A stretch of DNA of 55,355 nt, the filler included, from Sphacelaria rigidula (lineage: Eukaryota): the NCBI GenBank assembly GCA_964200075.2. It is 5 parts of 5 records of this genome, joined end to end, with 100 filler letters (N's around TTAATTAATTAA, not from the genome) between each part and the next. Parts side by side here need not be neighbours in the genome. Positions count along the whole stretch, not along the records: positions 44,368 to 55,355 come from CAXNAA020005569.1; 4 more parts are not named here. One strand, written 5' to 3'. The translations under genes and the position numbers were made by a program. This document shows, piece after piece, positions 3,951 to 55,355 of the stretch (position 1 is its first letter; each line of letters begins with the position of its first letter). The notes beneath the pieces were generated by a model that ran no database searches, had not been told where the DNA came from, and was given only the letters and a program-made list of their open reading frames with translations.

Positions 3951-5565
3951 TCTGGGATTTTTTCTCACACCATGCCCGACAGTGGAGAGCGCCTCTGCCG
4001 TGGTTACACAAAATTCAACTTAACGGTTGACGAGGGAAAGGGACTGCTGAACCCCTCTCGCGATAAAAAATAAAGACAAGCACCGCAGAAGGAAGGTGTA
4101 GTTCCAAAAAAATAAAAAAATAAATAAAAACTCCTGTGTTGACCTTCCTCCTGTGTGACGCGGGCTGGTGCGCCCACATATACACCGAAAGGTGAAGACC
4201 GTCGTCCAGAATAGATGGGCGACAACACACACACATATCTCGAACTCGAAGTTCACGGTATGTTGGACGACAAATTACTGCGAAATATACCGGGAACCTT
4301 GAGTTTGAGATACCTGTACGGATACATATCGTACAGATCATCTGTTGAATCTCGGTTGAACCGTCATCGATTTCACTTGAAAAAATTATGCATGAGGACT
4401 CGCGGATGCCTCGAGGTCAAAGGGGCAGGAGGTAGCCCTCTCGTCCACTCAATACTTGTAAACGCTTTTGATGCGTTTCAACTTTGAAATCATTGCACAT
4501 GTTGTCACTGATTTCAGCATAATATACAAGAGGCCTACTTATAGGTGCGCTTTCACAATGTTGACGATGTACCGACGGATGGCACTCCCTTTCGTGGCAC
4601 AGAGGCAGGTGTTGTAGCCGCTAGAAAGTAAGGTGAACGCATTCAAACCGCAGAAAAATTACTTCCAGGCAGTATGAGATCAGCATCATATCGCTCGGAA
4701 CTTGGGCTTTCCCGTGTAGTTGGCAAGATTGCTTCACCGGATCAACCCTTGGGGGTGTTATCCACCGTCATCAACACCGGGGCCCTGCAGGGCCATGCCT
4801 CGTCCTGCATTCGCTGTAGGGTCCCAGTCATTTGTTGTAAGGGGGAAGAGAGCCATATCCAATTATATCTTTGCGCATGCATGCCCACGGAACGATGCGT
4901 GGATACCGACATCGCTCTAAAGCAGCAGAGTATATTGTGCGTGTGGTATGAACCTCTTCGATATCCAGATTCGGATCCGCAGCAGCACTTGTGGCCAGAA
5001 CCGTTCGAAACGGCCAATATAATCTGAAAACTCTTGGGGTCAACATAAAAGTCATATCTGGAAATATATATCCCACCCTATAGGAGCACCCACCGACACA
5101 GCAGTCCCACTCCGAATCAACCCACCCGTCAAAACCGATACCCCCTCCTCATACCCCTGCCAAGGGATCCTGAACCGCCAGTATATATAGCTTTTGTGGG
5201 ATCCATCCAACCACAGGCAAACTTCACCAACTGGAGTCGACATATCGTGGTACCGAATTTACGGCCATCACATCTGATCCCCGCGCCGCGCGCTTGAGGT
5301 CACTTCAGCTGCGGTGAATCTGCCTTTCACTTCGCATTTTCAATTCGATAAAATTCAGGAAACGGAGTCAGCACGTTGGTAAACACGCCAACCGCTGAGC
5401 AGCGTGGGATATATCTCCAGAGTATGCCCGTGTGGCGTACAAGTAACAGCAGACAACAGCGGTAGTGGTTTTCATCGAACGCTGCTGCTCGAGAGGTCAA
5501 CCGTTCATCATTGTTGCGAGTATCCGACATCATTGCGGATATATTCGAAAACTTACTTGGGCAGC

Positions 5566-8500
5566 ATGACATTAACGATCGACCTCTCTGCGGGAGGAGG
5601 GTTGCGAGGGAATTGCAGGGATGAAGAACTAGGAACGCCCGACGGCCGACTCCTTTTCAAGAGAAAGCTTGGCCAAGGCGCGGAAGGGTCTGTATATCTC
5701 GCCGTTCCTGCCGAGCGTAGTGGATCATCGCGTAGTTGTTGCCGTCGCGATACTCAGCAGGAGCAACGGCACAACGGGCGTGCGTCGTCATCTGCATCTG
5801 CGTCGTCTTCACCAGCCACCGTCGGGCGTCTGCCGGTCGCGGTTAAAGTTGTGATTGGCGATGCTTTCAGACGATATAAAGAGACACGTTGCTTGTGGCC
5901 ATCTCTACGCCACCCTAACATCGTATTTCCGCGCAAGACTACGTTCGACAATTCAAATCAGAGATGCTTCCTAGAGATGGAATTTTGCGAGATCGATTTG
6001 CTAGACTTGGTGAAACGAGACGGGCCTCTGAGTGAGGCCCGCGGGGCGTTGTTCGCGGGCCACCTCGCTGCCGGACTCGCGCACTGTCACAGCCTAGGCA
6101 TCGCGCACCAAGACATAAAGCTGGAGAATGTATTTCTGAGACACGGCGTTGCGAAGCTGGGCGACTTCGGCAGCATACGCCAGGTCTTGCCGACGTTCCC
6201 GCAATACCAACAGCAACAACAAACACCAGAACCAGCACCAACACAACACCGGCAACGGGGGACCTCGCGAACGGCAACGGCGGGCCCAACGGCCGTGCGG
6301 GGTCACAGCGACAGCAACAAAATCGTTCCATCTCCAGAGTTTGAACAAAGTTTCACCCCACACCAAGATGCGGGGAAGGCGGCGGCCCGCCGCACCAACA
6401 AAAATGTCAGCATCGCAGCAGCATCACCTTCACCGTTCGTCGGGTCACCGCAGTACGCGCCGCCCGAAGCCTTTGAGAACGCGTTGGGCAAAGGGGCCGG
6501 CTCATTCGACCATGCCGCTGCGGCGGCGGTTGCAGAGGTGACGACAGCGGCGCAGTCATGGGGGTACGATTCATTTGCAAGCGATGTGTGGTCGTTGGGA
6601 ATTTTGTTGTACGCGGCGGTCGCCGGGTGTCTACCGTGGGAGAGGGCTTGCGTCCGCAAGAGTGCAGAGTTTCGGCGCTACGTGGAGCGTGGTGCGGAAG
6701 AATTTTTCCCCGAGAGCTTTTCTCCAGGTTAGTGTATTAACAGTGCCATGACATTGATAGCACGATGTCTTCGTGGCCTGTTGTTATTACTGCTGCTGCT
6801 GCTGCTGCTGCCGTTGTTTTTAGTTCGTTCAACGTGCATTGAGGTTGATCCGTTTCTCTGCTATCTGCGCTTGTGCATGGGTTGGTGGCGTCGGCATTTT
6901 GATGAACGATCTGTTTTCGTGGTGCGTCGCTTGCATGTGTTCAGTGTACAGTTTTCTTGGAGGCGAATTGATTGTCCTCTCACAAAATGTCAGTATTTTT
7001 TATGGGTTGAGACACTTGATGGTGTTGCCCATGGATTACATCGATGGCAGTCTCCGGGCTCGGACGCGCGCCGTGTGCATCGCATTTGTCTCGGCAGCTG
7101 CCTCGTCTACTACCTCAAGTTGCATTGAATCGACCTGTTTCTCTCGATAATTACTCGTACATCCCAAGGCTGTACGGTAGACCTTTGACGCTTTCATGAC
7201 CAAAATCTCACGGTTTACAGTAGACCGCGAGATCAGTCTTTCTGGATTATGCATACTTTTTTTCACTTGAAATTGATGCCGATTCAACTGAAGACTAAGC
7301 TCGCGGTCTAAGGGTTAAAAGCATACACGTGTGCTGTGGCATAAGCGTCTTGCAGATCCTGCGGGCAAAAGCGCGTGGATATGCGGGGTGCATGTTCTAT
7401 TACGTGTGCGAATCCTTGGCCGTCACCCTCTATAATACCGTGTGTATACTGCTTACATGGCTGAAGGCTCAGTCACGTTGGATTATTTCCCCACCCCTTC
7501 AGGATCAGCATGGTTTAAGCTTTAGAATCTACCGTGCACCTGTTCCGAACACAACTAATACTACTTGAACTCCCCCTTCAAATACAAGTCGCTGGTATTT
7601 TTTCTCGGCGTATTTCGTGTCCCCTCTGTCTCTTATTTTTACTTCCTGCGCCAACTCCTTTGTTGCCAACTTATTTGTTGTTCTTGAGCTCTTCATTTTC
7701 GTCCCCGCCTATCATTACAGCAACGTCCAATAATCTTTGTCTTGGGTTCGTGTTTTCATATCCATTACTTTTTCGCCGATTCAACCAAGAATACCCACTC
7801 ACATATACTTCAGTTTACTCGATGCACACGTGGGTAGTTATGTACTTCGTATGTATATCTATATATATATATATGTGTGTGTGTACGGTAATAGTCTGCT
7901 GCCTGCCCCGCGAACGCGCAACACCTGTAAATCCCACAGCATAGTTACCAGAATGTCGAGTGTCGATGTCGTTCTGTCCGGCCTTGCCATGCGTGAAGAC
8001 TTTACGTCTTTTCTGTAGACGCAGCTGTTTACTCAGTCGACCGCTTCTCTGTTACTATGTGCAAGGTTTTTTGGCATTCGTAAAAATAGCACACGACCTA
8101 CAAAAAGACTGTCGTGATACGACGGCGGTCAAGGACACAGAGCCACACCACGTGGCGGCACCTCACGATCGCCTTAAAAAATGCATCGGTGATCTAATCG
8201 TTCAGAGTGTGGGAACCCCAGGCCTTTCCAGACTGGACCGAAAACTCCGCGTATTACACAGAAAAGAAAGAAGCCAATCGCATGTTGGCTCCCTCCCTTT
8301 TCTACACCCTGCACACGTATCCTTCATGTAGTATTTCTCCCCTTTTGGCTTCTCACTTGTCCCTCTATTTCTCCGCATATCCAGGTCTGGCATCCTTGCT
8401 CTCTCGAATGCTCTCCATAGACCAAAGGAAACGCCCGACAGCGGCCGAGATTCTCCATAACGACCCCTGGGTTACGACTCCTCCGACAACACCGCCATCC

Positions 8501-10992: not shown

Positions 10993-11092
10993 NNNNNNNN
11001 NNNNNNNNNNNNNNNNNNNNNNNNNNNNNNNNNNNNTTAATTAATTAANNNNNNNNNNNNNNNNNNNNNNNNNNNNNNNNNNNNNNNNNNNN
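10993..11092. other. Artificial contig linker 44N-TTAATTAATTAA-44N
   Basis: Identical 100-nt linker occurs four times; the core gives stops in all six frames. Confidence 0.97.
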
Positions 11093-22084: not shown

Positions 22085-22184
22085 NNNNNNNNNNNNNNNN
22101 NNNNNNNNNNNNNNNNNNNNNNNNNNNNTTAATTAATTAANNNNNNNNNNNNNNNNNNNNNNNNNNNNNNNNNNNNNNNNNNNN
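22085..22184. other. Artificial contig linker
   Basis: 44N-TTAATTAATTAA-44N. Confidence 0.97.
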
Positions 22185-23322: not shown

Positions 23323-23376
23323 TTTGCCTCTCTGACCTTCTACGCATGCTCGCCTTCTTCGAACGTCCGCGAACAG

Positions 23377-27689
<4,313 letters not shown>

Positions 27690-29357
27690 GTGAGTGGGTC
27701 GACAGTAGAGGGGGGGGCTCGCCGCGGGAAGCGGGGGAGGGGGAGAAAGCGACCTAAAGTTTTGATCGTATATCTATGGTTAATTGAAAAAAAACTAACA
27801 ATAAAGCTAACGCTAACCCTAACCCTAGCCCCGAACCAAGGCGCACGAGACCCTCGGGCAAGGGGGGTGCATAGCTTCCCCTATAGGCAAAGGGTGCGTT
27901 GGCAGACCTGACAAAAACACGCCCTGGACGAGCTGTATCCACTGCTCACCTGCCCCAAACCATAACTTTTCTCAGAACCTTCTCGAGTCTAAAATTAAGT
28001 AGGGTGAAAACGACTGGAGTTGTTCTTGGTGATTATCAGGGAAGTGTTGGGGACGAATATTTGGGGGGAGGAGGGGTTGCACATACAGGGGATCAGCGAA
28101 AAAAATGAGCATGGCGCATACGAACGATCCTGAAGACTCTCGGACAGCGGTGGCTCCTGGTGTTTCGAAGCCCTAATATCAATATTCAACGCGAGGCATT
28201 GTGTAAGAAACTTCTGGGTTATCGGATGCGCATGGCTACCTCTGTCTTCACTTTATTTCTTCGAGGAAAAGAGGGAACAAATACACGAACCTGCCGAATG
28301 AACCTTTCGAATGAACCTTTCGGAAGATTTCGGGCGTGGCCTTTGACCAGCGATACATATACCTAATTATTGGCATCACTACCACCATTGTTGCCGTTGA
28401 AAATTGGACCTGAAGAATGATATCAAGAGATGTGTGTTAACCCCTGCCCATATTGGTATAGACCGTGCTTATTTCAAAGCGTAGTACTGGGATTCGGAAA
28501 ATACTCCGTCTTTCCTCACGTCCATTACTGAGAATTCGTGATGGAAACATATCTTGCAGGGGGAAATAGCGATAAACCGCGATAAACGTTTCACTTGGAT
28601 CCCCCGTCGAAACAGTTGAGCTCCGTTCTTTGAGGCCTTGGGCAGTGACTTACTCCCTAATCTCGGCACCTCGCGTCACTCCTCGCCTACCTCGTCTACC
28701 TCGCGAAGGTCGGACGGGGTCTCTACCCCACCCGGATAGTCACCTCATATATACATAATATTCATTAAAGTGCCAACAGCCTCATGGCCGTCGATCTTTT
28801 TATAATCGATGCAATTTTGATGCATCTTCAAACCTCATGGGTCCCCCTTATTTATGTTGTGTCGCTAAGTATATCGTGCATGCCACACCTCGGACTATGA
28901 AGGCTTCGGGATATCTACAACAGGAGGATTTTCGCCGTGAAAAATCAAGCCATAAAACGCTCGGAGTCAGAGGTTATTATAGCAACAACGATTCGAGGGA
29001 CTCGCTGAGCTCCATGAGCACAGGCTGAGATCTGCGGTCTGCAGAAGGGGCGCACGGCAAGGTCATGAGAGAGGAGGAATTCTTATGACCGTCCTCTTGT
29101 ACAAAACAAAATCTCCGTCCGAACGAGCACCCACATGGTCACTGATCAATTCATAAAGTAGCACTGGGTACGCCTTCCTTTCTCGCCAGGGCGCACCCAT
29201 GGCAGATGTTTGGGGAGGGGGGGGGGGGGGGAAATTGAGGGTTATAGGGTCAATATGCCAGACAAAGCCTGTTTTTTTTCNNNNNNNNNNACCTCCACAG
29301 ATAAACAAATTTCTTAAAAACTCACGCGGGTGCCCCCCCCGTTCCCGCCCGGGGGCG

Positions 29358-33176: not shown

Positions 33177-33276
33177 NNNNNNNNNNNNNNNNNNNNNNNN
33201 NNNNNNNNNNNNNNNNNNNNTTAATTAATTAANNNNNNNNNNNNNNNNNNNNNNNNNNNNNNNNNNNNNNNNNNNN
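33177..33276. other. Artificial contig linker
   Basis: 44N-TTAATTAATTAA-44N. Confidence 0.97.
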
Positions 33277-44267: not shown

Positions 44268-44367
44268 NNNNNNNNNNNNNNNNNNNNNNNNNNNNNNNNN
44301 NNNNNNNNNNNTTAATTAATTAANNNNNNNNNNNNNNNNNNNNNNNNNNNNNNNNNNNNNNNNNNNN
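44268..44367. other. Artificial contig linker
   Basis: 44N-TTAATTAATTAA-44N. Confidence 0.97.
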
Positions 44368-45950
44368 TGTATTCTAGCGCCTTGTCTATCTGTGTCTGTA
44401 ATCCTTCTGGTGTTTCTAAAATCCCCACAAAATCATCCGCAAACTTCAATCCTGATACCATATCTTCACCAACTTTGACCCCTTGCTTCGCTGCTGCCAT
44501 AAATAATATCAAGTTCTTGATAAATACCTTGAATGAAGGGGTGATAACGTACACCCTTGTGCAACTCCTTCTAAAATATGTAACATTTTCGATAGTTCCC
44601 CGTCTAGCATCATGGCACTTTTGGCACATTTTGTCATCTTCTTCACCATTCTCCACATCTTTCCTCCGATCCCAGCTTCCCACAGCTTTTTCCACAGTCC
44701 ATTTTTCCATGCTGTGTCATAAGCTTTTTGCACGTCCAGAAAGAAACAGTACGTTGTCAGCCCGGTGTCTTTCCTACCTTGAATAATCTTACTTAGTGTG
44801 TACACATGGTATACGCAACCACGGTTTGGTCTAAATCATGCTTGTGCCTCGCTGATTTTGTCTTTCTTTTCTGGCATCGTTCCTACTCTATCGTTCAGAA
44901 TCTTACAGGATGCGTTTCCCACCGTGCTCAGTAGCGTTATCCCTATGTAGGGTTAGCCGTGTCTCATTTTGTGCAAAGATTGACAACTACTCCTTCTCTC
45001 CACCTCTTGGGTGTGTACTCGTTTTCCCAGATCCAGTTACACAGCATAAACATCATGGTCATCATTCCTTCTCCCCCGTACTTTAGAAATACATTCACTA
45101 TTCTGTCTGCCCCTTCTGCCTTTCTGTTCTTGAGTTTAGCTACACACTCATTTACTTCATCTCTGGTAAACTCTCTCTGCAATCCTTTCTAGCCTCTATC
45201 CTCCCGTTTTGACGTCTCTACATTTGCCTCTGCCCACTCGTTGATTTCTTTTTCGAATTCCCTGTCGAACTCCGTGGTTGCTTCTGGTGTTCCTAGTTTA
45301 CGGTAATGCTCGACCGGCACTTCTCTCTTTCCCTTCGGTTTACTCACAATTTTACCGTTCTATGCCTGGAGTGTAGCTATCCTCTTGTCCCTCTTTCCTG
45401 CCTGGTTTCTCGTTATCCCTTCTGTCCCTACCCACATTTATTTTATCCCGCCGTCGAAATCTTCATTTGTTTTTCTCACTACACCTTCCCAAACTTCCTT
45501 CTTTTTCTTCTGTGCCGTCGTTTTTACTTTCTTTCAAACTTCAGTATACTCCTTCCATCCTGCCGTAGTTTTGTTCGGCATCAACCTCGCGTGGGCCGTC
45601 TCCTTACTCTGATAACCTCTTTCACTTCCTCATCCCACCAGTTTACCGCTCTGTTGCATACGATCAGTGTCCTCCCTATGACTTTACTCGCTGTGTTGTT
45701 GACCATCTACTCCCATCCTTCTTCGACCTTCGCTCCTGCCCGATTTCTTTCCATTTCGATATCAACTGTACCTACGCGTTCCAACAGCTCGGGAAATTCA
45801 CTGCATTTTTGGCCATCTCTTCTCGGAACTCTTGCTGTTTTCCTTCCATTTCTAGTTTATCGAGTCTCCATTTGCACATCTTCCTATCCCGCCTATTTCT
45901 TTCAGCTCTCATATGTTGGCTTTCTGTCCATATTTGGCGATGATATGTTC
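44368..45950 (-). mobile_element. Degenerate non-LTR retrotransposon (LINE) reverse transcriptase region, apparently 5'-truncated and cut by the contig end
   Basis: Frameshifted peptides EFTRDEVNECVAKLKNRKAEGADRI, WREGVVVNL, FFLDVQKAYDTAW, GVAQGCTLSP and LKFADDFVG, which are typical LINE RT motifs. Confidence 0.92.
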
Positions 45951-46037
45951 TTCCCGCGTCCTCCGCGCAGGAGGCGGGGGGAGGGGGAACTGAGAGAAAA
46001 CAATCATTCAAGTATACACCGTGGTGCGATTGGGTAC

Positions 46038-49000
46038 CTGCTCGACGCACTGCTCTCTCCTTTCCGGCTTCCTCTCCGTTTCCCGTGTCGATTGCGATGA
46101 CTCGTGCCGTCTACTGAACCCTTGTCTTCGTAGCTTGAGTCGCTGATCCCGCCCCGTCGCCGATATCCGCGTGCGTTTTGTCTGCCGCCGTCTGACGATG
46201 GCCTACCGCTAGACCTCTCCCTTCGTCCACTTGCATCGTCACGCCGCGTGGGTGACACCGACCGACTCCTTCGATTTCTGCTCGAAGAGTCACCGCGTAC
46301 AATCCTCTTCTTACTAGCAGCCGACGAACCTTCACGACCATTTTCTATTCCATCATATTTGTCCCGGTCCATCCCTTTTCTCTTCCGTCCCCTTTGGTCA
46401 TGACCGCTGGAGCTAGTATCCCCATCCTCACTGTCGGAGCTACTCAGGTCGCCCTCGTCATTCTCGCGCCCGGTGAGACTGTCGTCATCGTTACGCCCCT
46501 TGCGACCACGAGCGTTTCTTCGTCGCCTTCGGCCGCCAGCATTGCAACTTCGACGAGAATCGTGGCGAAGGTAAGCATCTGCGTCGACCTCGCGTCCGGT
46601 ACCATAGATATGAGGACTAGAGGGTGCGAATCCTGCAACGTGCGCTCCGGAATTATGCAGTCCGAGAGCGGCCATTGATCTCAGAAACTCGAAGAATGTA
46701 ACCTACAAATACGCGAAAGAGACACAGGCGTCCTGATATCGATGAAAGAAAATGTTCTCGCCACCGCGTCGCTCAAACAGCTTCCCGCCGAGGGTACGGC
46801 GTGCGAGCTATTGTCACAGTCGGTGCTCGTTGTAAGTCCTGTTCAACAAAAGCACTATGCTATATGCTGAGATGTGCCATCGCAGCACGTACAGTAGACC
46901 TGGGCGAATGCATGGCACGAACCCTTTTGATAACCGTATACAATAATATCCCGTGATGCTTCTTGCTTTTTGAGCGATCTACCCAAAAATATGCTGCAGG
47001 CCTACCGTGCCTCTCGCTTCGTAGTTTTCACTTACCTCTCTTCGTAAACCAAAGAAACGGCGAGACCGGAGGTATCTTCCCGCGTGGGACCGAGGAGCTG
47101 TGCAGCCAGTCTCTGTGAGTGCCTGCAGAGCCTCGTTAGCAGTCAGCATTCCGTCAACAGCAAAGCGATCGAAAACGCGCTTGACCTCCGCTAGTTTCTT
47201 CACAGATCGGAGGGCCTCGAATGTCTGCCCATCGCTGTCACCGACTTCGAAATCGTTGTTGTTGCCTGTCGCCACCCCCCGACGCGACTGCGTATCTCGT
47301 ACAGGTTTAGTAACACGGGAGGAAAACTCTTAGGAGCACAGCATGGAAATAGTATGCATCAAAGGCGCTTCGCATCAGACATTCTAGCAGGTAGTGTGCT
47401 AAATATTCGGATTTTTTCTAGACGTTAGGTGGCTAGCTGATTTCATCATGTGCTCCCCAGGTGTACGTTCGCAGCTACCAGGGTTTCTTCTCCCCTCCAT
47501 CGAGACAGAACCATGGTAAATATTCCGGATACCTCTCACCTTACGGGATGATATGCCCCTCTCTTTAGGCCCTTCCATAGCGTCGCTGTCAGAACTGCTC
47601 GCCGCCCAAAAGCCCTGTTCGTCAGCACCAGACTTACGTTGACCATCTCGTGATGACTTACTGCCACCGCGTGACGTCCTTTCGTTGAGACGTACATGGC
47701 CAGAATCTGTGACCTTCACGCCCCCTGCTTCTTGGGTCTGCGCGTTGTTTTCTTGTCCAAGATATACATCTGGGTCATCGTCAACAAAGATTGCAGAGTA
47801 GCTGCAGCAGGTGCACGACGGAAAGCAGAGCGCGTGCGGGCAGTTGGCACCGGTAGAGGAGATCATTTGTGTTTTGTTTTTACTGGTAATATGGCCGATA
47901 CGCTTCACTACCACGACGAACTGCATGTACCACCGGCTTGACGCAGTACCCATTCACGAGCAAAAACGCGAGGTGCATGTCGTGCGATGCACCACTCGGA
48001 TTCTCCACCGATAAACGATGGGCTCCGTAGATAGCTATCGATAATGTGATTCAATCTATTTCCCACTGTTCTGCACTGTGCCTAACTTGGAGCCTTGCAC
48101 TATCGTGCAACCTACGTATGGGATATCACGTTTATTCGTCACATCCATCTCGGATATCAACGTCCATTTGTGATGATCATCTGGCATATGGACGTCCCTC
48201 TGGGACATCCACCTAAGATATCATATCCATCTAGGATGTTCATATGGGAGATCCATCCGGGAGATCCATAACCATATAGACGTCCATATTCCAGATGGAT
48301 ATTGTAAGCTAATGCAAGAACGTGCGTCACTCACGCTGTTGTGAAGTCCACAAATGAGATTCCACTCTTGTTCTTCTCCATGTCAACCAGCCACGACGCG
48401 CAAGCTTCCGCTGTCACGTCGCGACCTATATACTTCAAGGCAGCGCGAGCGTCAGCAGCCGAAAGATTCCCCGTGTTCCTTCGATCGAAGCGGTCGAACA
48501 CCACCTATTGTGTACATAGAGATGGGAAGGCGCCTAGGGGTTATCGCTGCAAGGGCAAGATGGCGGCTCAGCGACTCGGTCTGCAGCATGAATGAGCACG
48601 TACAATCAAACACGATTTTACTTCAGCGGCTTCGCCTCTAGCACAACTGGTTACATGCAGTCTGGCACTCTTGTGACGTAGCGTAACAATACTGCAATAC
48701 GCGACGGCTGGTTTCCCGCATGATCTAGAGTTTTTTGCAGTCACACTGCCTCCCCGGGACTGCACAAAGCTTGTGCGAGCTTCACGCCAGACCGTGAAAA
48801 AGGACTTGACTTGAACGGAAAGTTTTAGTTACGTCCCATGATATACGTCCATGACTGCCCCATCCTAACGTCTTGCAAATGAGCAGTGATTCTCGCCGAG
48901 GCAACCCAACCGCCTTGTTCTTCCAAGGAAACATGTACCGTTCGCTTCCATACTATCGTGTTTGTCGACGCAACGCATCGAAAACCACACGATGTTCTGT

Positions 49001-52000
49001 TGCATGTCTCCCTCGGTCAAGACTGTCTCTCGACATGAGTGTATCACATCTGGGTGCTTGTTTCGCAGCTACCGCCTGCACTTAAACTGACATACGAAAA
49101 GGCACGTACCTTTAACTTGGTGATAAGACGTATCCTGTCCCTATCTAGGTGTCGCACGTAATTTTCTATGTCCGTGTGGCTCTTTCCGACCTTTCTTGTG
49201 ATGTGGCAAAGGATTGAGCCGATTAGAAATTCGCACAAGACACGAAGAAACGCAAGCAAGGGGAGATACGATAAGTGTATTTTGTACGTCTGTCGACGTA
49301 TTGCGTTCACGCGACGTCACCCATCTACAGACAAAAAGGTGCCATAAACGCATTCATCAGACCCACGGACGTTATCTCGTTGACTACGCAGCGTGGTTGG
49401 TCGCCAGCCACGTTGCATAGTTGCGAGTAGCCAACAGCATGTATGTATAGCCATATATATTCCTCTGCGGGGCTACCGTAATCAAAATGTCGTTGCATAT
49501 GTACCTGTGCAGAACTGCTTCCATGGCCGTAGCAAATTATACAAGAGTGAATCCCCTCTCGCCTCCCCCGAACCGCTGGCCCTCACCTCTTCAGCTTCCG
49601 TATCCTTAATCTTCTGTATACCGAGACATACCCGCCGACGGTGTAACGGGTGGGTTACACCAAGCATGTGCTGCAAGTCGTTTTCCTCGAGTTTAAGTAG
49701 GAGAGCTCCGTCAACCTTGGCCCTTGAGAACTCTCTTCGATACTCGCCAAGTTCTAGCTCGTCTTCCAACCAATCTAATACCTGGCCCAGTATAAAATTT
49801 TTCGAACAGTATGTGCAGAAAATGCTCTGAAGCTGATTCGTTGATCGACGTAGTGCCGACGACGAAACGTCATTACCTCCATGGACGTGGGAGCATTCAT
49901 GGCCGGTGTAGGTACTAGTCGCTCACTTGTAGACTATTTGAAGAGCCCAAGCCCCAGGGTAAAATGTCTTCCTCTGTCAGCGCTGTGCTTTGCATTTCGC
50001 GATTGGCTTACACCGTTTGATACCGTTACCGCTTCAGGTGTAGCACCATCGTCGCTCGTGGCTGGTTCTGTTATCGATCATATAGGCGTTCCGTTCCGGA
50101 TTTGAACTGTGTGAGCTCGCTGCTGTGAGTTTTCAGCTCCATATACACATGATCGTTCACTGACTGTCACTGCGGGCCTACGCTTCAAAGGCCCACCCTG
50201 CACATGCGGCCATGTGCAGCCCATGAACTGTGACTGTACCTCCTGCACACCCCAATCGCACGGAGATTGTCTCTGTCTGTCCCTGCTTGCCGCAATAATG
50301 GCCTCATCGCGCGCCACGCCAGGTCCCAGGCCTCGACCGGACTGACTGGGTGGCATCATGGGATAGAGCTCGCCAGTGGAAGCGATTTTCACCTGAGTTG
50401 GTCAGAAACGAGAAAAGAGGACGGATGAAAGACAACCATGTGTTCATAAACTCCGATAGACTCGACATGTCGCTCCAGATGATGGATACGTTCCCGTGCT
50501 CTCAAGGGTTGATTCCACTTTATCGCCGTACCACCACAATGTTTCCCAAGCGCTTCATCAAAAACGTATCCCTTGCTCATCAAACATGTATTTTGCGTCT
50601 GTTTCAAACGGAATAGCCTTGCTCTCCTCTACCCCAACGCCGCTCTCTCTGGCGTCACTGGTCCAAATATTTGCCGCAAGACAAATCACCGTGGACACGT
50701 TTGCCTTGCCTGCATGTCTCGGTTGACGAGGTAGATTGGGATGTCGCCAAACTCCGCAAGAAACTGCCGACCGGGTCCATCCGGGGAAGGAAAATCGCTG
50801 TCCGTGTCGCTAGCCATGGCCAGCGAGCGAAACCTAGTCTCGCCCTCACTCACAGCTTTCAGCACGGTAGTGCGCTCGGCCCCTATACTGAGATCAACTG
50901 AGGCGGATTCTACATTATGCCCGGAGTAACTGTGGATACAATAAAAAGTGCAGACGGCAATGAGGTCTTTGTTAGAGCGGCGAGATGGCCAACCAATGAG
51001 TGACGTAAGTGGAACTTTCATATACGAAGCACACCTCATAAATGACTGCGCACTTGGCGTGGAAAGAGCGCTCAACTTAGCTGCACCAACACATTTCAAG
51101 GATCGGAGATTTGAGAGCAATACTCGTCATGGCGCGGGGGGTACGCACAAACGTCAACATGTGCGATGTTTCATTGCAATCCCCTCGCGCTCCGTGCCGG
51201 ATTCTTTTAGTTGGACCAGAAATATCGTACACAGACAAAAACATGGTCATCCGAAGCACGCAGGGAATCACATGTAACCAAACAAGCCATCCGCGACTCA
51301 CATTTTTCCTGAACGAGTGAGAAGCGCGGCACCCGTAACTCTCTGCTGCCCTTGCGTGTGCCCCATATCGCAGGCTCGAAAGGCAGCGTCTATAAGCTCC
51401 TCAAGCACTGTCATTCCACTCTCACCGTATGCCTGGGGTGGAGGAACGCGGTGAAACCGCCCATGTTGATTGGCCCACTACATGTTCCGAGTACGAGTTC
51501 GTGCCGGTCTTCAAAAGAGCACAACTCTCTCAAAGTTCAGCACACAAAAATGCCGCATCATGGACGGTATCCCAGCCGCTCACCTGCTGTCTTTTCAATA
51601 TTCGAATATACTGCAAGGCTGTAGACCGCAATCAACTCGATACAACAATATAATGTGGCCGACTTTCCTGCCAAACGGAATATTATTGTATGTCCGCGTT
51701 ACCTACGAACGAGAGCAGCCACTATATACCTGCATGCCAGAAAAGGTTTTGGTGTACGTCTCCCGAGCCATCGACCTCTGCGCCTCTCTTCCATCACCGC
51801 CATCAACTTGTACACCACCACCTTTGAAATTGAATCCTATTCGTGTGTCGATGCCACCGCGACTTCTAGGTGGCGTCGTTGTTGCAATAAGCTCTGTTAG
51901 AGACACTCCTCCTCCGGAGTTTTCGTGGTGGGGGGATGAGACCGCACCCCAGCCACCGCCACTCCGACTGGGCCCTAAACTCGGGCCGTCGCGACCACCT

Positions 52001-54065
52001 GGTGTTGACTTGGCCGTACTTCGCTGGCGAGTGGGCGAGTCAGCGGCGAACGCTTCGAGGCGTGATGGGCTGTTTTGGCGGGCTGCAGCAGCCGCTGCTT
52101 GCTTCTCGATCAGAGTCTTCATCGCGACCGAGCTAGTGTTGCAAATGTTGGTGTTCGCAAGAAGTTGCAGGGGGGGCGATAGTATTTGCACTCGTCATGT
52201 GGAGTTGCAGTATGAGTACGTCAGTGATATTTCTGTGGGCCGGCTCCTATTTCATTGTGTGTCTGTTTTCATCCCATCTATTCTTAACGCCAGTCTACAT
52301 CTTTCGGTGTATGTAGGCGCATCAGCCGGGGTCACACTGGAGGAAGGTCAAGACAGGCGTTTGTTTTGGGGGAGAGGATCGTATATGCGCTATTAAAGAT
52401 GAGTACAGTAGCAGCATCAACGTCGAGGGTCTTACCATAACCCCGGTCACCTGTAGCTCTCGGAGTTGAGAAGCCACAGCGAATTCTTGCCCTTTGCATA
52501 GGCTCTGAGCGGACTCCTAGATGACTGCGCATTATCTCTCGCTGTGTGCTACGCGACACCACGCGATATGGAGGAAAGACGCAATATGGGTGAGGGTGCG
52601 TGCGCTTTCACAGACAGCGATGTTTAGCCCACAACAGTGCTGGCACGGATCGATTGCGATTTTGTGGACAATTCAAGGACTGGGAGGTGTCAAAAAAGCG
52701 ACAGCACTTGATTGCACTCCATTTTTATCTTTGTTGCGCCCCTCCAATATATACGCCGTTAAAAAACATGCCCTGATACAGGCGCGCTCACCTTGCTGAA
52801 AAGGGTGAAAGTCCCTTGTTGGCGAAAAAACTCCCACACTCGTGCCAAAAGGCATACACATGGGTAAGGCGATCAACTCCTTGAATTTCCGCGTGTATCC
52901 TTTCTCAGCATATTTTCTGGATTACATCTCGGTGGGGATAGCGCGGCTATATTCACCGTGTTCCTAGAACCGCATCTCTCGCTGTAGACCGTGCACATGC
53001 ACCCATCGCGTAACTTTGAAGCTGAATGCACAGCGGTACTACGTACAGTAGCAGCACCTGGCTTTTTGACCGTCGAGGTGGGGTACACAGCGCCGAAGCC
53101 TGTTGTGGCCGCCGTTTCCGAGCAGGCGTAGTAACTCCCCGTGGCACAAGATCACGTGCTAGATCTAGAACCTTTTCCGGGGAGCACATGGTTGCATGTT
53201 GGCGTCAGAAGCAGTTATAATTACGTGTACAATACCGCTGCGGAGCCATTGTGCCCACCCGACCTCACTCTGTTGCGACCTCGACATGGGTTCATTCATC
53301 TCTCAGGCGGAACACTTGACAACAACCAGCTTCACATATACCACGATAAATGTTACGTCTGGGTCTATATAATGTTGGAGAGTAAGATGTACCCTCTATT
53401 TCAATTTGCGTCGAGCTACGTGGGAGTTCTCGTGCCTTGCCGTTATGTGCATGCGATCAGGCTCTCAAAGCCAGCACCAGCCGTCTGTGTTACTGCTTCT
53501 GTTTCCAGCCATATCTTGTTGGCTTTGTGCCGAAAACAGTTTGCGACACTAACCTGATCTGTGTGTTCCAGGGTGCGCTTGAACAGGGGACTAGAAGGGG
53601 CATCCCTGACTCTGTCGTTGCTGAAATGTGTGGCCATGTCACTGTCACGGCTAACTGGCCTCTGCTATACTCATCAGAACGAACCTCGCTCGCTGGCAAC
53701 GGGACCGTTTCAAGGCACGATCTTAGAATATCGCAAGGGTTGGTCATCCTCCGGTATTCGAGATTCGCCGTTTGTTTATGGATCAAATATTCGGAGGCGT
53801 TTGATCTCAAACATTTTCGCCTTTAGTATAGTGCAGTATAGGCGTACAGAAGAGTAGTACAACAGTCCTCGTTGGGTACACGCTGTGCTTCTGTTTTATG
53901 TGTCGAGAAGAAAAGCTACTCTACAAATACACACAATGGCAGAACGAAGATGAGGTAGTGCAGCGATGAGCTTACGTCATCCGCCGCGATCATAATCCCG
54001 TCGTTGCCGGGATCAGGCGGATCCCGCCTTGTTGCGCGAGGGGTTGCGGGATAAGGATTTGGCAT
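46038..54065 (-). CDS. Multidomain protein: N-terminal unknown region + cytidine-deaminase-like domain (Zn ligands absent) + SAM + two EF-hand-like pairs + R/S/D-rich tail. Exons 53976-54065, 53554-53664, 53047-53171, 52792-52899, 52451-52516, 51730-52132, 51302-51432, 50710-50929, 50240-50392, 49587-49781, 49110-49190, 48335-48504, 47540-47801, 47036-47287, 46038-46702
   Basis: All 14 joins are phase-consistent (3032 nt, ~1010 aa). CDA-like: ELIDAAFRAC...[42 protein letters not shown]...SPDGPGRQFLAEF...STGELYP. SAM: DWGVQEVLDWLEDELELGEYRREFSRAKVDGALLLKLEENDLQHMLGVTHPLHRRRVCLGI. EF-like: VFDRFDRRNTGNLSAADARAALKYIG...ISFVDF and VFDRFAVDGMLTANEALQAL...VTFFEFL. The five 5' exons are less certain. 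The 3' end either splices at 46037 (GTACCC) or stops at 46004. Confidence 0.8.
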
Positions 54066-54219
54066 CTTCCGCGGGGAGAGCACTCGTACACTTGAATAAA
54101 GTGGAGCACGTTCACATTGGCGTGTATGGGCGAAATATGACTACTTGTCGTAGGCGGGGTTCTCTCCTAGTTGCGAGTTACGACACCAGCGAACGCATCA
54201 CCTGGTAGCCGAGATCACT

Positions 54220-54228
54220 TGTGTGCTT

Positions 54229-54275
<47 letters not shown>

Positions 54276-54655
54276 TGTGTCTGTGTCTGTGCATGTGTGT
54301 GTTTCTGTGTGTCTGTGTGTGTGTGTTTCTGTGTGTCTGTGTGTGTGTGTATGTGAGAGTGTGTGTGTGTCTGTGTCTGTGTTTGTATGTGTCTGTGTCT
54401 GTGTGTGTGCGTGTCTGTGTGTATGCGTGTCTGTATCTCTGTGTGTCTGTGTGTCTGTGTGTCTGTATATCATGTCTGTGTGTCTGTGTGTCTGTGTGTC
54501 TGTGTGTCTGTTTGTGTGTCTGTGTCTGTCTGTCTGTCTGATCTGTGTCTGTGCCTGTGTCTGTCTGTCTCTGTCTGTGTGCCTATGTCTCTCTGTCTGC
54601 GTCTCTGTGCCTCTGTGTCCGTCTTTGTCTGCGTGCCTGTGCCTGTGCCTGTGCG
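54220..54655. repeat. Long degenerate (GT)n/(GTCT)n microsatellite
   Basis: ~430 bp of GT, GTGTCT and GTCT units; source of the Cys/Val-rich spurious ORFs. Confidence 0.95.
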
Positions 54656-55355
54656 TAATGAGAACAAGCAGACCTCACACGCCCATCATAGAGCAGACCG
54701 TCGAGGGTAGCATGTTCTGGTATTCGATTGAAGCTTTAGCCGTGTACCATTATTATAAGGTGCATGCATGAAATGCATATTGGACAAGTACATACATCTT
54801 GACTATGCTGGGCCCCACTCGGTATTAGAACTACCGTATACATGAATGCAGTGGTGTCGTTCTTATTTGCCGTTGGTGATAAACTAATCACATTGGGAGA
54901 CTATGGAACGATCACCCGCCCAGCGACCAAAAATGAGCGATTGATGTTTTTTTTTCACGTAGGAAAAAAAGCGGCGCTGCGCCGTATGCTTCGCTGCACT
55001 GTGCTCTGGCACCACCGCACAGTACTGTACTGCTGTGGTACTGACCGTGACCGGTGTTGGGCAGCACTCTCTTGAGAATGCTGCGTGGTTGAATTTGGCC
55101 ATGTGGCATCCTCTGCACTACTGACGATCAGCCAGCAAAATGCGCTTTTGGTCATTTGCGAGTGTGCGGGGCTCAGAAAAACGTGAATCTAGTACAAAAA
55201 AAGTACCACCAAAAGAGCTACTTTTTGCTCGTAACAATAAATTGTGCGAATTGAGGTTTAACTCCGAGATGAGGTTCAAGCCTAAAACAAACAGTGTTTT
55301 CGTGAGATTGAGAGTAGATGATACGATTGAGAGTGAAAAGCGGTCAATCAGTGAA

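Follow-up and report, generated by a model that had tools for sequence, protein, structure and literature searches.

A transcribed gene of Sphacelaria rigidula encoding a deaminase-like domain predicted to be catalytically dead, a SAM domain and EF-hand-like modules

A minus-strand locus of the brown alga Sphacelaria rigidula raises the question of what a cytidine deaminase (CDA) fold is doing in a long multidomain protein, and whether the reading frame that suggests it belongs to one gene at all. The window analyzed here, the whole stretch of 55,355 nucleotides including filler, joins five parts of five records of assembly GCA_964200075.2; the gene lies in the part taken from CAXNAA020005569.1 (positions 44,368 to 55,355). 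A sequence-only reading had proposed 15 exons, a start at 54065, and at least 1010 residues carrying a deaminase fold, a SAM domain, two EF-hand-like pairs, and a charged tail.

Splicing of 11 minus-strand exons from 52548 to 46038 (Table 1) gives 2630 nt, or 876 codons, with no stop. The acceptors are all AG; the donor is GT in ten cases and GC in one, so every intron is of the GT-AG type except for a single GC-AG one. The product is collinear with P0002 and P0003, annotated orthologs from Ectocarpus fasciculatus and Scytosiphon promiscuus, at 65.2% identity over 716 columns and 65.0% over 709 columns, respectively. Among the ten internal introns, six show up as joints with GT..AG ends when contigs from the RNA-like runs X1 to X3 are aligned, and none of the exon joints occurs in contigs of the DNA-like run X5. 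These joints are 51431/51729 (cut +1; exons 3/2; X1, X2), 50929/51302 (exons 4/3; X1, X2, X3), 49778/50237 (cut +3; exons 6/5; X1, X2), 47801/48335 (exons 9/8; X1, X2), 47287/47540 (exons 10/9; X1, X2, X3), and 46700/47034 (cut +2; exons 11/10; X1). A 984-letter contig (X1 record 2) joins exons 2 to 8, running from the deaminase through SAM to EF pair 1, and a second contig covers exons 8 to 11. Three junctions had been singled out for confirmation: 51730/51432 and 50240/49781 correspond to the exon 3/2 and 6/5 joints, and 50710/50392 was deduced by counting letters in X1 record 2, which has 155 letters between its pieces 49585-49778 and 50709-50929. We conclude that these exons form a single spliced transcription unit, in consistent phase as had been read.

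Table 1. Exons of the verified gene model and neighboring features, with splice sites where noted (a slash marks the cut)
Feature	Positions	Strand	Evidence
Possible first coding exon, candidate	53058..53189	-	ATG 53189-53187; 44 codons; donor CAG/GT at 53058/53057
Exon 1, conserved N-terminal motif region	52451..52548	-	98 nt; tblastn to P0002 and P0003, 69% over 32 aa; donor GTGACC at 52451 scores best
Exon 2, disordered N-terminal region up to start of deaminase-like domain	51730..52132	-	403 nt; tblastn support; X1 record 3 piece ends at the 52132 boundary
Exon 3, first third of deaminase-like domain	51302..51432	-	131 nt; 93% identity to P0002 over 45 aa; acceptor CAG, donor GTGAGT
Exon 4, middle of deaminase-like domain	50710..50929	-	220 nt; 83% identity to P0002; X1 record 2 covers 50709-50929; GC donor CAG/GCAAGG
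Exon 5, last third of deaminase-like domain and linker	50240..50392	-	153 nt; tblastn support
Exon 6, SAM domain	49587..49781	-	195 nt; X1 record 2 covers 49585-49778; donor GTGAGG picked by best score against P0003
Exon 7, part of long helix into EF pair 1	49110..49190	-	81 nt; tblastn 59-66% identity over 29 aa
Exon 8, EF-hand-like pair 1	48335..48504	-	170 nt; EF-hand_7 match
Exon 9, disordered linker	47540..47801	-	262 nt; contig joints on both sides
Exon 10, most of EF-like pair 2, FDRF signature	47036..47287	-	252 nt; 78% identity to P0002 over 78 aa
Exon 11, last helix of EF pair 2, then R/S/G/D-rich disordered tail	46038..46702	-	665 nt; X1 record 1 covers 46038-46700; donor CAG/GTACCC
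Non-LTR retroelement (reverse-transcriptase) fragment in intron after exon 11; belongs to the locus but not to the protein	44400..45811	-	sense strand

The verified model is shorter at its 5' end than had been proposed: the 11 exons and 876 codons stand, and the count of 15 exons, the length of at least 1010 residues, the four additional 5' exons, and the start at 54065 are unconfirmed. Upstream of 52548, no ortholog residue maps apart from a weak nine-residue match, and an in-frame stop codon lies directly 5' of that position. The candidate first exon joins 52548 in frame, and its last nine residues weakly resemble the N terminus of P0002; the RNA-like contigs are unspliced across 52579-53168, so this stretch may instead be 5' untranslated region or a retained intron.

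The deaminase-like domain is split over exons 3 to 5, as the sequence-only reading had it. Once spliced, the domain (residues 178-295) matches a profile built from 31 bacterial CDAs at E 5.3e-26, over profile positions 6-123 of 132. P0003 aligns by sequence with human CDA (1mq0, E 7.4e-19) and Bacillus subtilis CDA (1jtk, E 2.4e-18); its AlphaFold model has a pLDDT of 85-98 across roughly residues 150-285, and the best PDB matches of the model are CDAs (1ux1_B, E 1.4e-10, target TM 0.84, rmsd 1.9 A, 121 columns). The domain shares fold and length with the homotetrameric CDAs (1jtk/1ux1, 1mq0, and mouse 2fr5; the ortholog model is 37-40% identical to them, with TM 0.81-0.85), with a sequence E of about 1e-18 and common Glu, N-x-E, and Arg-Gln motifs. 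Those enzymes stand alone at about 130-145 residues and hold three zinc-binding Cys, whereas the brown-algal domain is embedded in a protein of some 1,000 residues or more and has lost all three. Exon 4 encodes GAE where CDAs have CAE, and PDGPGRQ where they have PCxxCRQ; Gly, Asp, and Gly occupy the three zinc-ligand positions in the window protein, P0002, and P0003. We tabulated these motifs for 55 rows: the window, 4 bacterial CDAs, and 50 database proteins whose domain E was below 1e-5 and whose match exceeded 85 profile positions. At least one zinc ligand is lost in 37 of the 55, the catalytic Glu is present in 54, and the second ligand is Asp in 25 of the 37 ligand-losing rows. Judged by alignment, the domain is complete and without all three zinc ligands, in keeping with its earlier description as a homotetrameric-type pseudo-enzyme.

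Close behind the deaminase, exon 6 matches SAM_1 at E 7e-14 and 52.4 bits (cut-off 23), and its enclosing ORF matches SAM_2 at E 1.3e-11; by these profiles the SAM assignment, also made before, is solid. Two EF-hand-"like" helix-loop-helix pairs had been described, and that cautious wording was apt. Pair 1 matches EF-hand_7 at E 5.3e-6 and 27.1 bits, below the cut-off of 30, and in the ortholog P0036 the region aligns to the N-lobe of calmodulin (best E 4.7e-4); it is calmodulin-like in its alignment, with degenerate loops. In the ortholog model, residues 372-425, exon 7 included, form one helix, and pLDDT falls below 50 at residues 498-591, in the exon 9 linker. Pair 2 matches no Pfam family, unlike calmodulin-type pairs, whose four-helix fold it shares in the model (P0048, pLDDT 82.5): its best PDB neighbors are EF-hand proteins (TMq 0.5-0.66), with weak Foldseek E-values (best 0.029, none at or below 0.001), and it is EF-like by predicted fold only. 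Measured against the canonical EF loop pattern, the window copy has Arg at loop position 3, and orthologs deviate at position 3 or 12; the brown-algal loops lack the canonical ligand residues of calmodulin-type pairs. Calcium sensing, which had been suggested for these modules, is doubtful on this sequence evidence in the brown-algal form. The charged tail is as expected, with 221 residues comprising R 18.6%, S 17.2%, G 14.0%, and D 10.0%.

A phmmer search with P0037 identified 514 proteins at E <= 0.001, 16 of them at E <= 1e-30. In a Pfam scan of 14 members, SAM_1 was above its cut-off in all 14 and EF-hand_7 in 8, and Tudor_5 was listed in 8. Members of the family begin with a CDA domain and SAM, continue with EF-hand modules and a disordered basic/acidic linker, and end in a Tudor array; the EF-type modules between SAM and Tudor number one to three, and oomycetes and brown algae have this domain order in common. 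The ortholog repeats, which are absent from the window, match Tudor_5, Agenet, and 53-BP1_Tudor, and so resemble Tudor domains of the SETDB1, Agenet, and 53BP1 types. At the level of structure, the triple Tudor of SETDB1 is matched by the P0003 model at E 4e-6, with a global TM of only 0.25 because the repeats are loosely placed in the model. PF00567, the Pfam TUDOR family of SMN/TDRD type, was not among the listed matches.

The architecture, which the sequence-only reading did not recall as described, is not new. A stramenopile deaminase-SAM-Tudor branch of the CDD/CDA clade is listed in the survey by Iyer, Zhang, Rogozin, and Aravind (2011, Nucleic Acids Res 39:9473; PMC3239186), which calls the Ectocarpus version inactive, predicts a role in RNP assembly for the Tudor arrays, and suggests RNA editing for active members. 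The window gene agrees with the branch in having an N-terminal CDA-type domain followed by SAM, in a stramenopile, with an inactive brown-algal version; as to the Tudor part, orthologs of the window gene end in repeats and the window itself holds none. A word search of the survey's text returned no mention of EF-hand, calcium, or calmodulin. In the literature searched, this survey alone was relevant, and no bench work on any member was found.

That the deaminase fold serves oligomerization, as had been suggested, is plausible from modeling. Four copies of P0003 residues 145-295 gave a predicted tetramer scoring 0.88 against 0.01 for the best of three controls; the prediction ran without the family alignment and its pass may reflect memory of solved CDA tetramers, which counts against building a scaffold on it. 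Among proteins of solved structure, 21 of 30 same-chain pairs reached the mark, against 0 of 23 single chains. Agreement between the runs is at least 91% of contacts (partner pLDDT at least 79), and the predicted interface takes in residues 250-255, the former zinc motif. With a probability of roughly 0.55, we read the gene as the catalytically dead brown-algal ortholog of a stramenopile-wide family, acting as a noncatalytic multivalent scaffold. The protein, we infer, would no longer deaminate. Its dead domain would retain the CDA-type homotetramer as a four-armed hub, SAM would supply further self-association or partner binding, and both EF-like pairs would be structural or peptide-binding modules. 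In the full-length protein, a Tudor array would dock the assembly on methylated lysine/arginine marks of chromatin or RNP proteins, and the R/S/G-rich tail may be both a methylation substrate and a condensate-promoting segment.

The zinc-less pocket might instead take up a ligand, whether nucleoside, nucleotide, or flipped-out base, and signal to the SAM, EF, and Tudor parts, which is the nucleoside sensing that had been proposed. We think this distinctly improbable, although the retained Glu speaks for it, as does the recurrent Asp at the second ligand, which indicates that the substitutions are themselves conserved. The N-x-E motif, which in CDA binds ribose, and the Arg-Gln that follows the former CxxC both line up with those of the B. 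subtilis and human enzymes, and across 40 family members conservation is at least 90% at the positions of E218, P249, G251, and R254 of P0003. Such survivors (Glu, N-x-E, Arg-Gln, and the second-ligand Asp) are not obviously needed for pure oligomerization, a point against the scaffold; yet the conserved residues sit in the predicted subunit interface and may be kept for assembly alone. Moreover, Phe24 of B. subtilis CDA, which stacks on the base, aligns with Arg in P0003, and pocket geometry is uncertain without zinc. An editing deaminase working through another metal site or none is very unlikely indeed: CDA enzymes require zinc, and its ligands are all replaced here, which outweighs for us the kept Glu and the complete site of oomycete relatives. 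The 2011 survey (PMC3239186) points both ways, suggesting editing for the branch and calling the Ectocarpus version inactive.

Other alternatives concern the gene itself. The ORF does not close at 46038, which is a splice donor; the earlier "at least" was justified, and the donor was overlooked and the protein is not whole. Beyond 46038, X1 record 1 has 1081 more letters and X3 record 13 has 64, and therefore some downstream exon exists. Orthologs run on into Tudor repeats and relatives end in 1-20, but in none of the window's frames did tblastn (E <= 10) detect Tudor-coding sequence, and a profile of 11 brown-algal repeats reached no better than E 0.41 against 2250 window ORFs of at least 15 aa, while recovering 5 of 6 control proteins. 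The array is central to the scaffold idea, and its absence here weighs against it. A retroelement-bearing intron or rearrangement may have cut the gene from its array, leaving a Tudor-less or otherwise changed C terminus, or the assembly may be misjoined here; either is compatible with any functional reading. The reverse-transcriptase fragment (RVT_1, E 3.2e-8 on 44512-44835) starts about 226 nt past the exon 11 donor in sense orientation, all four runs show very high word depth across 44400-46029, the unique DNA contig X5 record 26 stops at 45812, and plus-strand kinase exons lie further downstream (23336-23734 and 5383-6729). Even so, we hold an altered 3' end to be unlikely: the 876 codons are intact, the donor is canonical, the RNA-like contigs continue past it, and tandem Tudor repeats are difficult to assemble and may simply fall outside the window. 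Fusion of two or more adjacent genes in the model has next to no probability; the database orthologs are automatic, "partial" models, but the two contigs together span exons 2 to 11, and the same domain order recurs in oomycetes, a labyrinthulomycete, MAST-4, and brown algae.

The named members with all three Cys are oomycetes only (Pythium oligandrum, P. insidiosum, Aphanomyces cochlioides, and Thraustotheca clavata); those without the triad are E. fasciculatus, S. promiscuus, the labyrinthulomycete Hondaea fermentalgiana, and MAST-4. In the deaminase-domain tree 26 of 52 inner branches are open, so that it cannot tell a single from a repeated loss of the zinc site. Oomycete members (e.g., P. 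oligandrum TMW64049.1, T. clavata OQS06562.1) share the domain order of the window gene, with 33% identity over 351 columns between P0068 and the window protein; they differ in keeping Cys-Cys-Cys and Glu, with dCMP_cyt_deam_1 above its cut-off, and in having canonical EF-hands (EF-hand_7, E 1.7e-19) and usually one C-terminal Tudor. They probably represent the ancestral, active, Ca2+-responsive state. Beyond the 2011 description, the analysis adds to this family the EF modules, labyrinthulomycete and MAST-4 members, the oomycete Cys triad, and a predicted tetramer.

Between 52548 and 46038 the minus strand of the window carries stop-free pieces with recognisable protein signals, which are collected with the other features in the table below. 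Exon 51432-51302 is bounded by an AG acceptor and a GT donor, and exon 50929-50710 by an AG acceptor and a GC donor. We used the 73-aa translation of exon 50928-50710 as a query for longer proteins, which gave 64 candidates, 35 of them matching at E ≤ 0.001. The four best share 84 to 88% identity and include orthologs from Ectocarpus fasciculatus (P0002, 1191 aa) and Scytosiphon promiscuus (P0003, 1150 aa); the remaining 31 are ordinary cytidine deaminases (CDAs) of 132 to 157 aa, at 49 to 53% identity. A tblastn search of P0002 and P0003 against the window returned eleven collinear minus-strand matches, running from 52548 to 46586. Exon boundaries were set by enumerating GT or GC donors and AG acceptors and scoring the joined translations against the orthologs. 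The resulting 11-exon model spans 2630 nt and 876 codons with no stop, and uses ten GT donors and one GC donor. The spliced protein is collinear with both orthologs, sharing 65.2% identity with P0002 over 716 columns and 65.0% with P0003 over 709.

Coordinates of the features of the window, with the evidence for each
Feature	Positions	Strand	Evidence
Exons 1-4	52548-52451, 52132-51730, 51432-51302, 50929-50710	minus	ortholog-guided model
Exons 5-8	50392-50240, 49781-49587, 49190-49110, 48504-48335	minus	ortholog-guided model
Exons 9-11	47801-47540, 47287-47036, 46702-46038	minus	ortholog-guided model
Faint deaminase signal	50686-51126	minus	dCMP_cyt_deam_1, E 0.14
SAM ORF	49482-49922	minus	SAM_1, E 7e-14, 52.4 bits, cut-off 23
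EF-hand pair ORF	48331-48504	minus	EF-hand_7, E 5.3e-6, 27.1 bits, cut-off 30
R/S/G/D-rich ORF	46004-46702	minus	
Non-LTR retroelement fragment	44400-46029	minus, sense to gene	RVT_1, E 3.2e-8 at 44512-44835; RT-like ORFs at 44964-45188
Protein-kinase coding piece	5383-6729	plus	Pkinase, E 2.2e-26
Protein-kinase coding piece	23336-23734	plus	Pkinase, E 4.4e-7

The model was compared with sequencing runs over 44400-54150, using three RNA-like runs (X1 to X3) and one DNA-like run (X5); that four small runs of one study are RNA is a guess, from their holding 15 to 39% of the sampled words, as expected of exons alone. Contigs from the RNA-like runs show joints with CT..AC ends, equivalent to GT..AG on the minus strand, at 46700|47034 (cut +2), 47287|47540, 47801|48335, 49778|50237 (cut +3), 50929|51302, and 51431|51729 (cut +1). 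Thus, six of the ten internal introns of the model are seen among the joints listed from the RNA-like runs, and none of the six in the DNA-like run. One contig of 984 letters (X1 record 2) extends across exons 2 to 8. Exon 5 fits the 155 letters between its pieces 49585-49778 and 50709-50929, and the GC-AG intron 50709-50393 is therefore accounted for as well. A second contig of 2416 letters (X1 record 1) spans exon 8 through exon 11. Since X1 record 2 links exons 2 to 8, the deaminase exons belong to the same transcript unit and are neither skipped nor a separate gene, either of which the sequence-only reading had named as grounds for withdrawing its claim. That neighbouring genes have been read as one is, given such a contig, hardly credible. 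The observation of a spliced fusion gene is largely right, and the interpretation first placed on it partly right. In the intron between exons 8 and 9, a 44-nt tandem repeat of 2.4 copies occupies 48185-48289; the DNA-like run holds a 42-nt skip variant there (48239|48282), possibly a length polymorphism.

The 5' end of the model differs from the one first drawn, which began at 54065 and carried four extra exons; tblastn with the ortholog N-termini gave these no support. The RNA-like runs are uninformative on this point either way, with zero cover over 53854-54150, where that first exon and start lie, and thin cover over 53202-53853. Exon 1 is closed in its frame by a stop codon immediately 5' of 52548. 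The interval 53189-53058 is a candidate start exon that keeps the frame when joined to 52548; over its final nine residues it bears a weak resemblance to the N terminus of P0002, the one match of the tblastn search at E ≤ 1000, at approximately 53129-53046. RNA-like contigs are unspliced across 52579-53168 and 52377-52582. Translation may begin in an upstream exon or at the Met of exon 2 (residue 37 of the model), or an intron may be retained. All four runs show very high word depth in the bin 52224-52549, covering intron 1 and exon 1, with loose ends at 52290-52357 and DNA contig breaks at 52322-52330, signs of a further dispersed repeat in intron 1. At 54220-54628, just 5' of the gene, an imperfect but long microsatellite of the (TG)n type (60 copies of a 6-nt unit, 74% matches) is succeeded by repeats of 14 and 20 nt; the microsatellite gives rise to long Cys/Val and Thr/His pseudo-ORFs. 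Paired 44-base N runs at 10993-11092, 22085-22184, 33177-33276, and 44268-44367, spaced by ∼11,092, and a 10-base run at 29281-29290 look like withheld sequence and not like biology.

Residues 178 to 295 of the spliced protein match a profile of 31 bacterial CDAs with an E value of 5.3e-26, over positions 6 to 123 of 132, and the whole domain of P0003 matches human CDA (1mq0, E 7.4e-19) and Bacillus subtilis CDA (1jtk, E 2.4e-18) by sequence. The AlphaFold model of P0003, built from a 40-sequence alignment, has a mean pLDDT of 64.0 and a pTM of 0.36, with pLDDT of 85 to 98 over roughly residues 150 to 285. Its best neighbours in the PDB are homotetrameric CDAs: 1ux1_B (E 1.4e-10, target TM 0.84, rmsd 1.9 Å, 121 columns, 40% identity) and 1mq0_A (TM 0.84). 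Homology to CDAs thus extends over their full length, in the window domain by sequence and in P0003 by both PDB sequence match and model. In a profile-guided alignment the window protein, P0002, and P0003 have G-A-E where CDAs have C-A-E, and P-D-G-P-G-R-Q where CDAs have P-C-G-x-C-R-Q. The C(H)-A-E motif is accordingly broken in the window by a Cys-to-Gly change that spares the catalytic Glu, and P-C-x-x-C-R is missing from all three proteins. The term "pseudo-cytidine-deaminase" was well chosen: all three zinc ligands are lost, with the catalytic Glu retained. An ordinary salvage CDA is ruled out by the missing ligands.

A SAM domain begins at approximately residue 336, directly after the deaminase-like domain, and scores well above the Pfam gathering cut-off (PF00536). 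Its nearest relatives by sequence are those of diacylglycerol kinase delta, the liprins, Shank, TIR-1/SARM1, and polyhomeotic. Neither EF-hand-like pair reaches the Pfam cut-off; pair 1 falls short by score, and pair 2 matches no family. Models of both regions show four helices with short loop strands, as expected of paired helix-loop-helix units. The pair 1 region of a further ortholog, P0036 (residues 22 to 108), aligns to the calmodulin N-lobe (best E 4.7e-4), and the best 60 of 177 sequences matching it at E ≤ 1 are all calmodulins or calmodulin fusions. In a canonical EF-hand, positions 1, 3, 5, and 12 of a 12-residue loop supply the ligands. Pair 1 of the brown algae departs from this pattern: position 3 is Arg in the window, and the orthologs place Gly or Ser there and Asp or Asn at position 12. 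Oomycete members have canonical loops. Pair 2, encoded by exon 10 and the start of exon 11, is conserved more strongly than any other signature in the family; K, F-D-R-F, T, E, Q, L, E, G, and R are invariant in 15 sequences. Confident models give it four helices and short strands in the loops (P0003 residues 593 to 673; pLDDT 82.5 in P0048, the protein modelled for this pair); the nearest PDB folds are L-plastin, calmodulin, troponin C, and myosin light chains (TMq 0.5 to 0.66), with weak Foldseek E values (best 0.029, none ≤ 0.001). Six oomycete-type members (P0068, P0085, P0087, P0091, P0109, and P0120) have an additional EF-hand pair, of canonical type, placed between the two conserved EF-like regions, and a long acidic stretch interrupts their pair 2; the brown-alga form has neither. 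The tail is a mixture of R, S, G, and D, not an RS dipeptide array, and is predicted to be disordered in the ortholog (P0003 pLDDT < 50 over residues 677 to 962). No RRM appeared in any Pfam scan of window ORFs and orthologs, which rules out reading the tail as that of an SR splicing factor.

The gene extends past the point at which the first-drawn ORF stopped. The open-ended exons down to 46038 stand, but they are not the whole gene: a canonical donor, CAG|GTACCC (46038/46037), bounds exon 11, in codon phase 2. RNA-like contigs continue past this position, by 1081 letters in X1 record 1 and 64 in X3 record 13; X2 record 6 stops there. P0002, P0003, and P0036 carry 3 to 7 or more Tudor/Agenet-type repeats at the C-terminal end, after the tail (Tudor_5, E 7.9e-15 in P0003 and 4.9e-21 in P0036), resembling the histone-reader types of SETDB1, Agenet, 53BP1, and SGF29. 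Tudor coding was not found in the window by tblastn (E ≤ 10). A profile of 11 brown-alga repeats reached no better E than 0.41 on the window's 2250 six-frame ORFs of 15 aa or more; as a control it found repeats in five of six proteins, the sixth, the distant homolog P0037, stopping before any tail. Below 46000, Pfam scans of 82 ORFs that are 100 aa or longer returned only Pkinase (two ORFs) and RVT_1 (one ORF). The plus-strand kinase pieces, which lie downstream of the gene described here, probably represent exons from a single kinase gene or from two. A search with the tail exon for homologs among longer proteins gave none at E ≤ 0.001 among 8000 scored candidates, low complexity having probably crowded them out.

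In the intron after exon 11, approximately 226 nt from its start, a sense-strand reverse-transcriptase fragment begins. The unique DNA contig stops at 45812, and word depth below that point is very high; across the element it is counted in thousands for the RNA-like runs and in hundred-thousands for the DNA-like run, which marks the element as a high-copy, possibly transcribed repeat. The Tudor exons may lie beyond a very long intron, the repeat may be the site of a rearrangement or mis-join, or the gene may have a different 3' end. That the locus itself is altered at its 3' side in Sphacelaria rigidula is a doubtful explanation; the repeat and the Tudor-free window would fit it, and the intact donor and the contigs that continue past it fit an unaltered gene.

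P0037 (662 aa) shares 28.5% identity with the window protein over 596 columns. A phmmer search with it against 1.84 billion representatives gave 514 matches at E ≤ 0.001, 98 at ≤ 1e-10, and 16 at ≤ 1e-30. Among 14 longer members, Pfam placed SAM_1 above cut-off in all 14, EF-hand_7 in 8, and dCMP_cyt_deam_1 in 6, and listed Tudor_5 in 8. The named members are the oomycetes Pythium oligandrum, P. insidiosum, Aphanomyces cochlioides, and Thraustotheca clavata, the labyrinthulomycete Hondaea fermentalgiana (19 Tudor stretches by Pfam, 20 by the brown-alga repeat profile), MAST-4, and two Ectocarpales. We tabulated the zinc ligands in 55 rows: the window, 4 bacterial CDAs, and 50 database proteins kept from 72 domain rows (domain E < 1e-5, more than 85 profile positions). 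All three Cys are present in 18 rows, comprising the 4 bacterial CDAs, 2 unrelated fusions, and 12 family rows, of which the named ones number four, all oomycetes. At least one Cys is lost in the other 37, with Asp at the second ligand position in 25 of these; the Glu is kept in 54 of 55. The site is thus complete in oomycetes and dead in brown algae, the labyrinthulomycete, and MAST-4, with the rest of the architecture kept. In a tree of the domain, 49 family rows stand apart from other CDAs (SH-aLRT 93) and the window groups with P0002 and P0003 (SH-aLRT 95). The tree is otherwise poorly resolved (26 of 52 branches open) and sets a lower bound of two on the changes at the zinc site. The two fusions outside the family have the look of joined salvage-pathway enzymes or of merged gene models: P0038 (Rotaria socialis, 1325 aa) joins an intact CDA to DDHD and IP_trans families in a precomputed list, and P0039 (744 aa) joins one to Metalloenzyme and DeoC.

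The architecture, proposed as undescribed, was published in 2011, when Iyer, Zhang, Rogozin, and Aravind (PMC3239186) set out a stramenopile deaminase-SAM-Tudor branch with 1 to 22 (23) C-terminal Tudor domains and suggested that its proteins might assemble an RNP complex editing small non-coding RNAs. Like that branch, the window gene has a CDA-clade domain followed directly by SAM, and it is orthologous to the E. fasciculatus and S. promiscuus proteins (65% over about 700 residues). The window contains no Tudor domains; the gene is open at the 46038 donor, past which RNA-like contigs continue, and the orthologs have them. It belongs to a computationally described family and opens no new category. 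The main text of that paper does not contain EF-hand, EF hand, EFh, calcium, or calmodulin. No experimental work on family members was found in the literature searched, only the 2011 survey or unrelated papers.

If the deaminase-like domain is no longer an enzyme, it may still assemble as one. Four copies of P0003 residues 145 to 295, run without a family alignment, gave a predicted assembly score of 0.88, against 0.01 for the best of three controls, on a mark reached by 21 of 30 proteins solved as one-chain pairs and none of 23 solved as single chains, a calibration on two copies and so unlike the four-copy case. Contact agreement between runs was at least 91% and partner pLDDT at least 79. 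The prediction, made on the P0003 domain, favours a tetramer, but because CDA tetramers have already been solved, this pass may reflect likeness or memory rather than binding. The predicted interface takes in residues 250 to 255, the former zinc motif, which would give a non-catalytic reason for the conservation of that motif.

We favour the reading that the protein is a non-catalytic multivalent scaffold, at a probability of roughly 0.55. Built around a tetrameric hub, it would display four SAM domains along with EF-like modules and disordered R/S/G/D arms, and in the full-length form Tudor arrays would dock the scaffold on methylated chromatin or RNP proteins. The retained Glu is what a still-active enzyme would need to keep, but with the zinc ligands gone such activity is very improbable; a ligand sensor built on the surviving pocket residues is quite unlikely. 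A bolder version of the scaffold, which we regard as unlikely, holds that the zinc-less domain is not a decaying relic but a re-purposed hub building a methylation-dependent condensate, oomycetes having kept the ancestral editing enzyme. Brown algae and many unnamed relatives have the replaced site (small residue-A-E ... P-D-G-x-small-R-Q/E) in conserved form, and in the model it falls in the putative tetramer interface. The four-armed hub, SAM, R/G-rich tail, and Tudor array would then together form a condensate on chromatin or RNA, and the oomycete members would represent an ancestral Ca2+-regulated, Tudor-targeted editing enzyme.

The gene has its value as a well-supported example, in which spliced transcript contigs, orthologs, and models agree. 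Canonical EF-hand modules in oomycetes, and degenerate ones in brown algae, suggest from their sequences a calcium input that would go beyond the 2011 survey. The family also offers a clean natural comparison, between a complete site in oomycetes, some of them crop or animal pathogens, and a dead site elsewhere, and makes two questions testable: what a Tudor-targeted cytidine deaminase edits, and why a dead tetrameric enzyme is kept. Were the re-purposed hub real, it would provide a natural enzyme-to-scaffold series inside one family.
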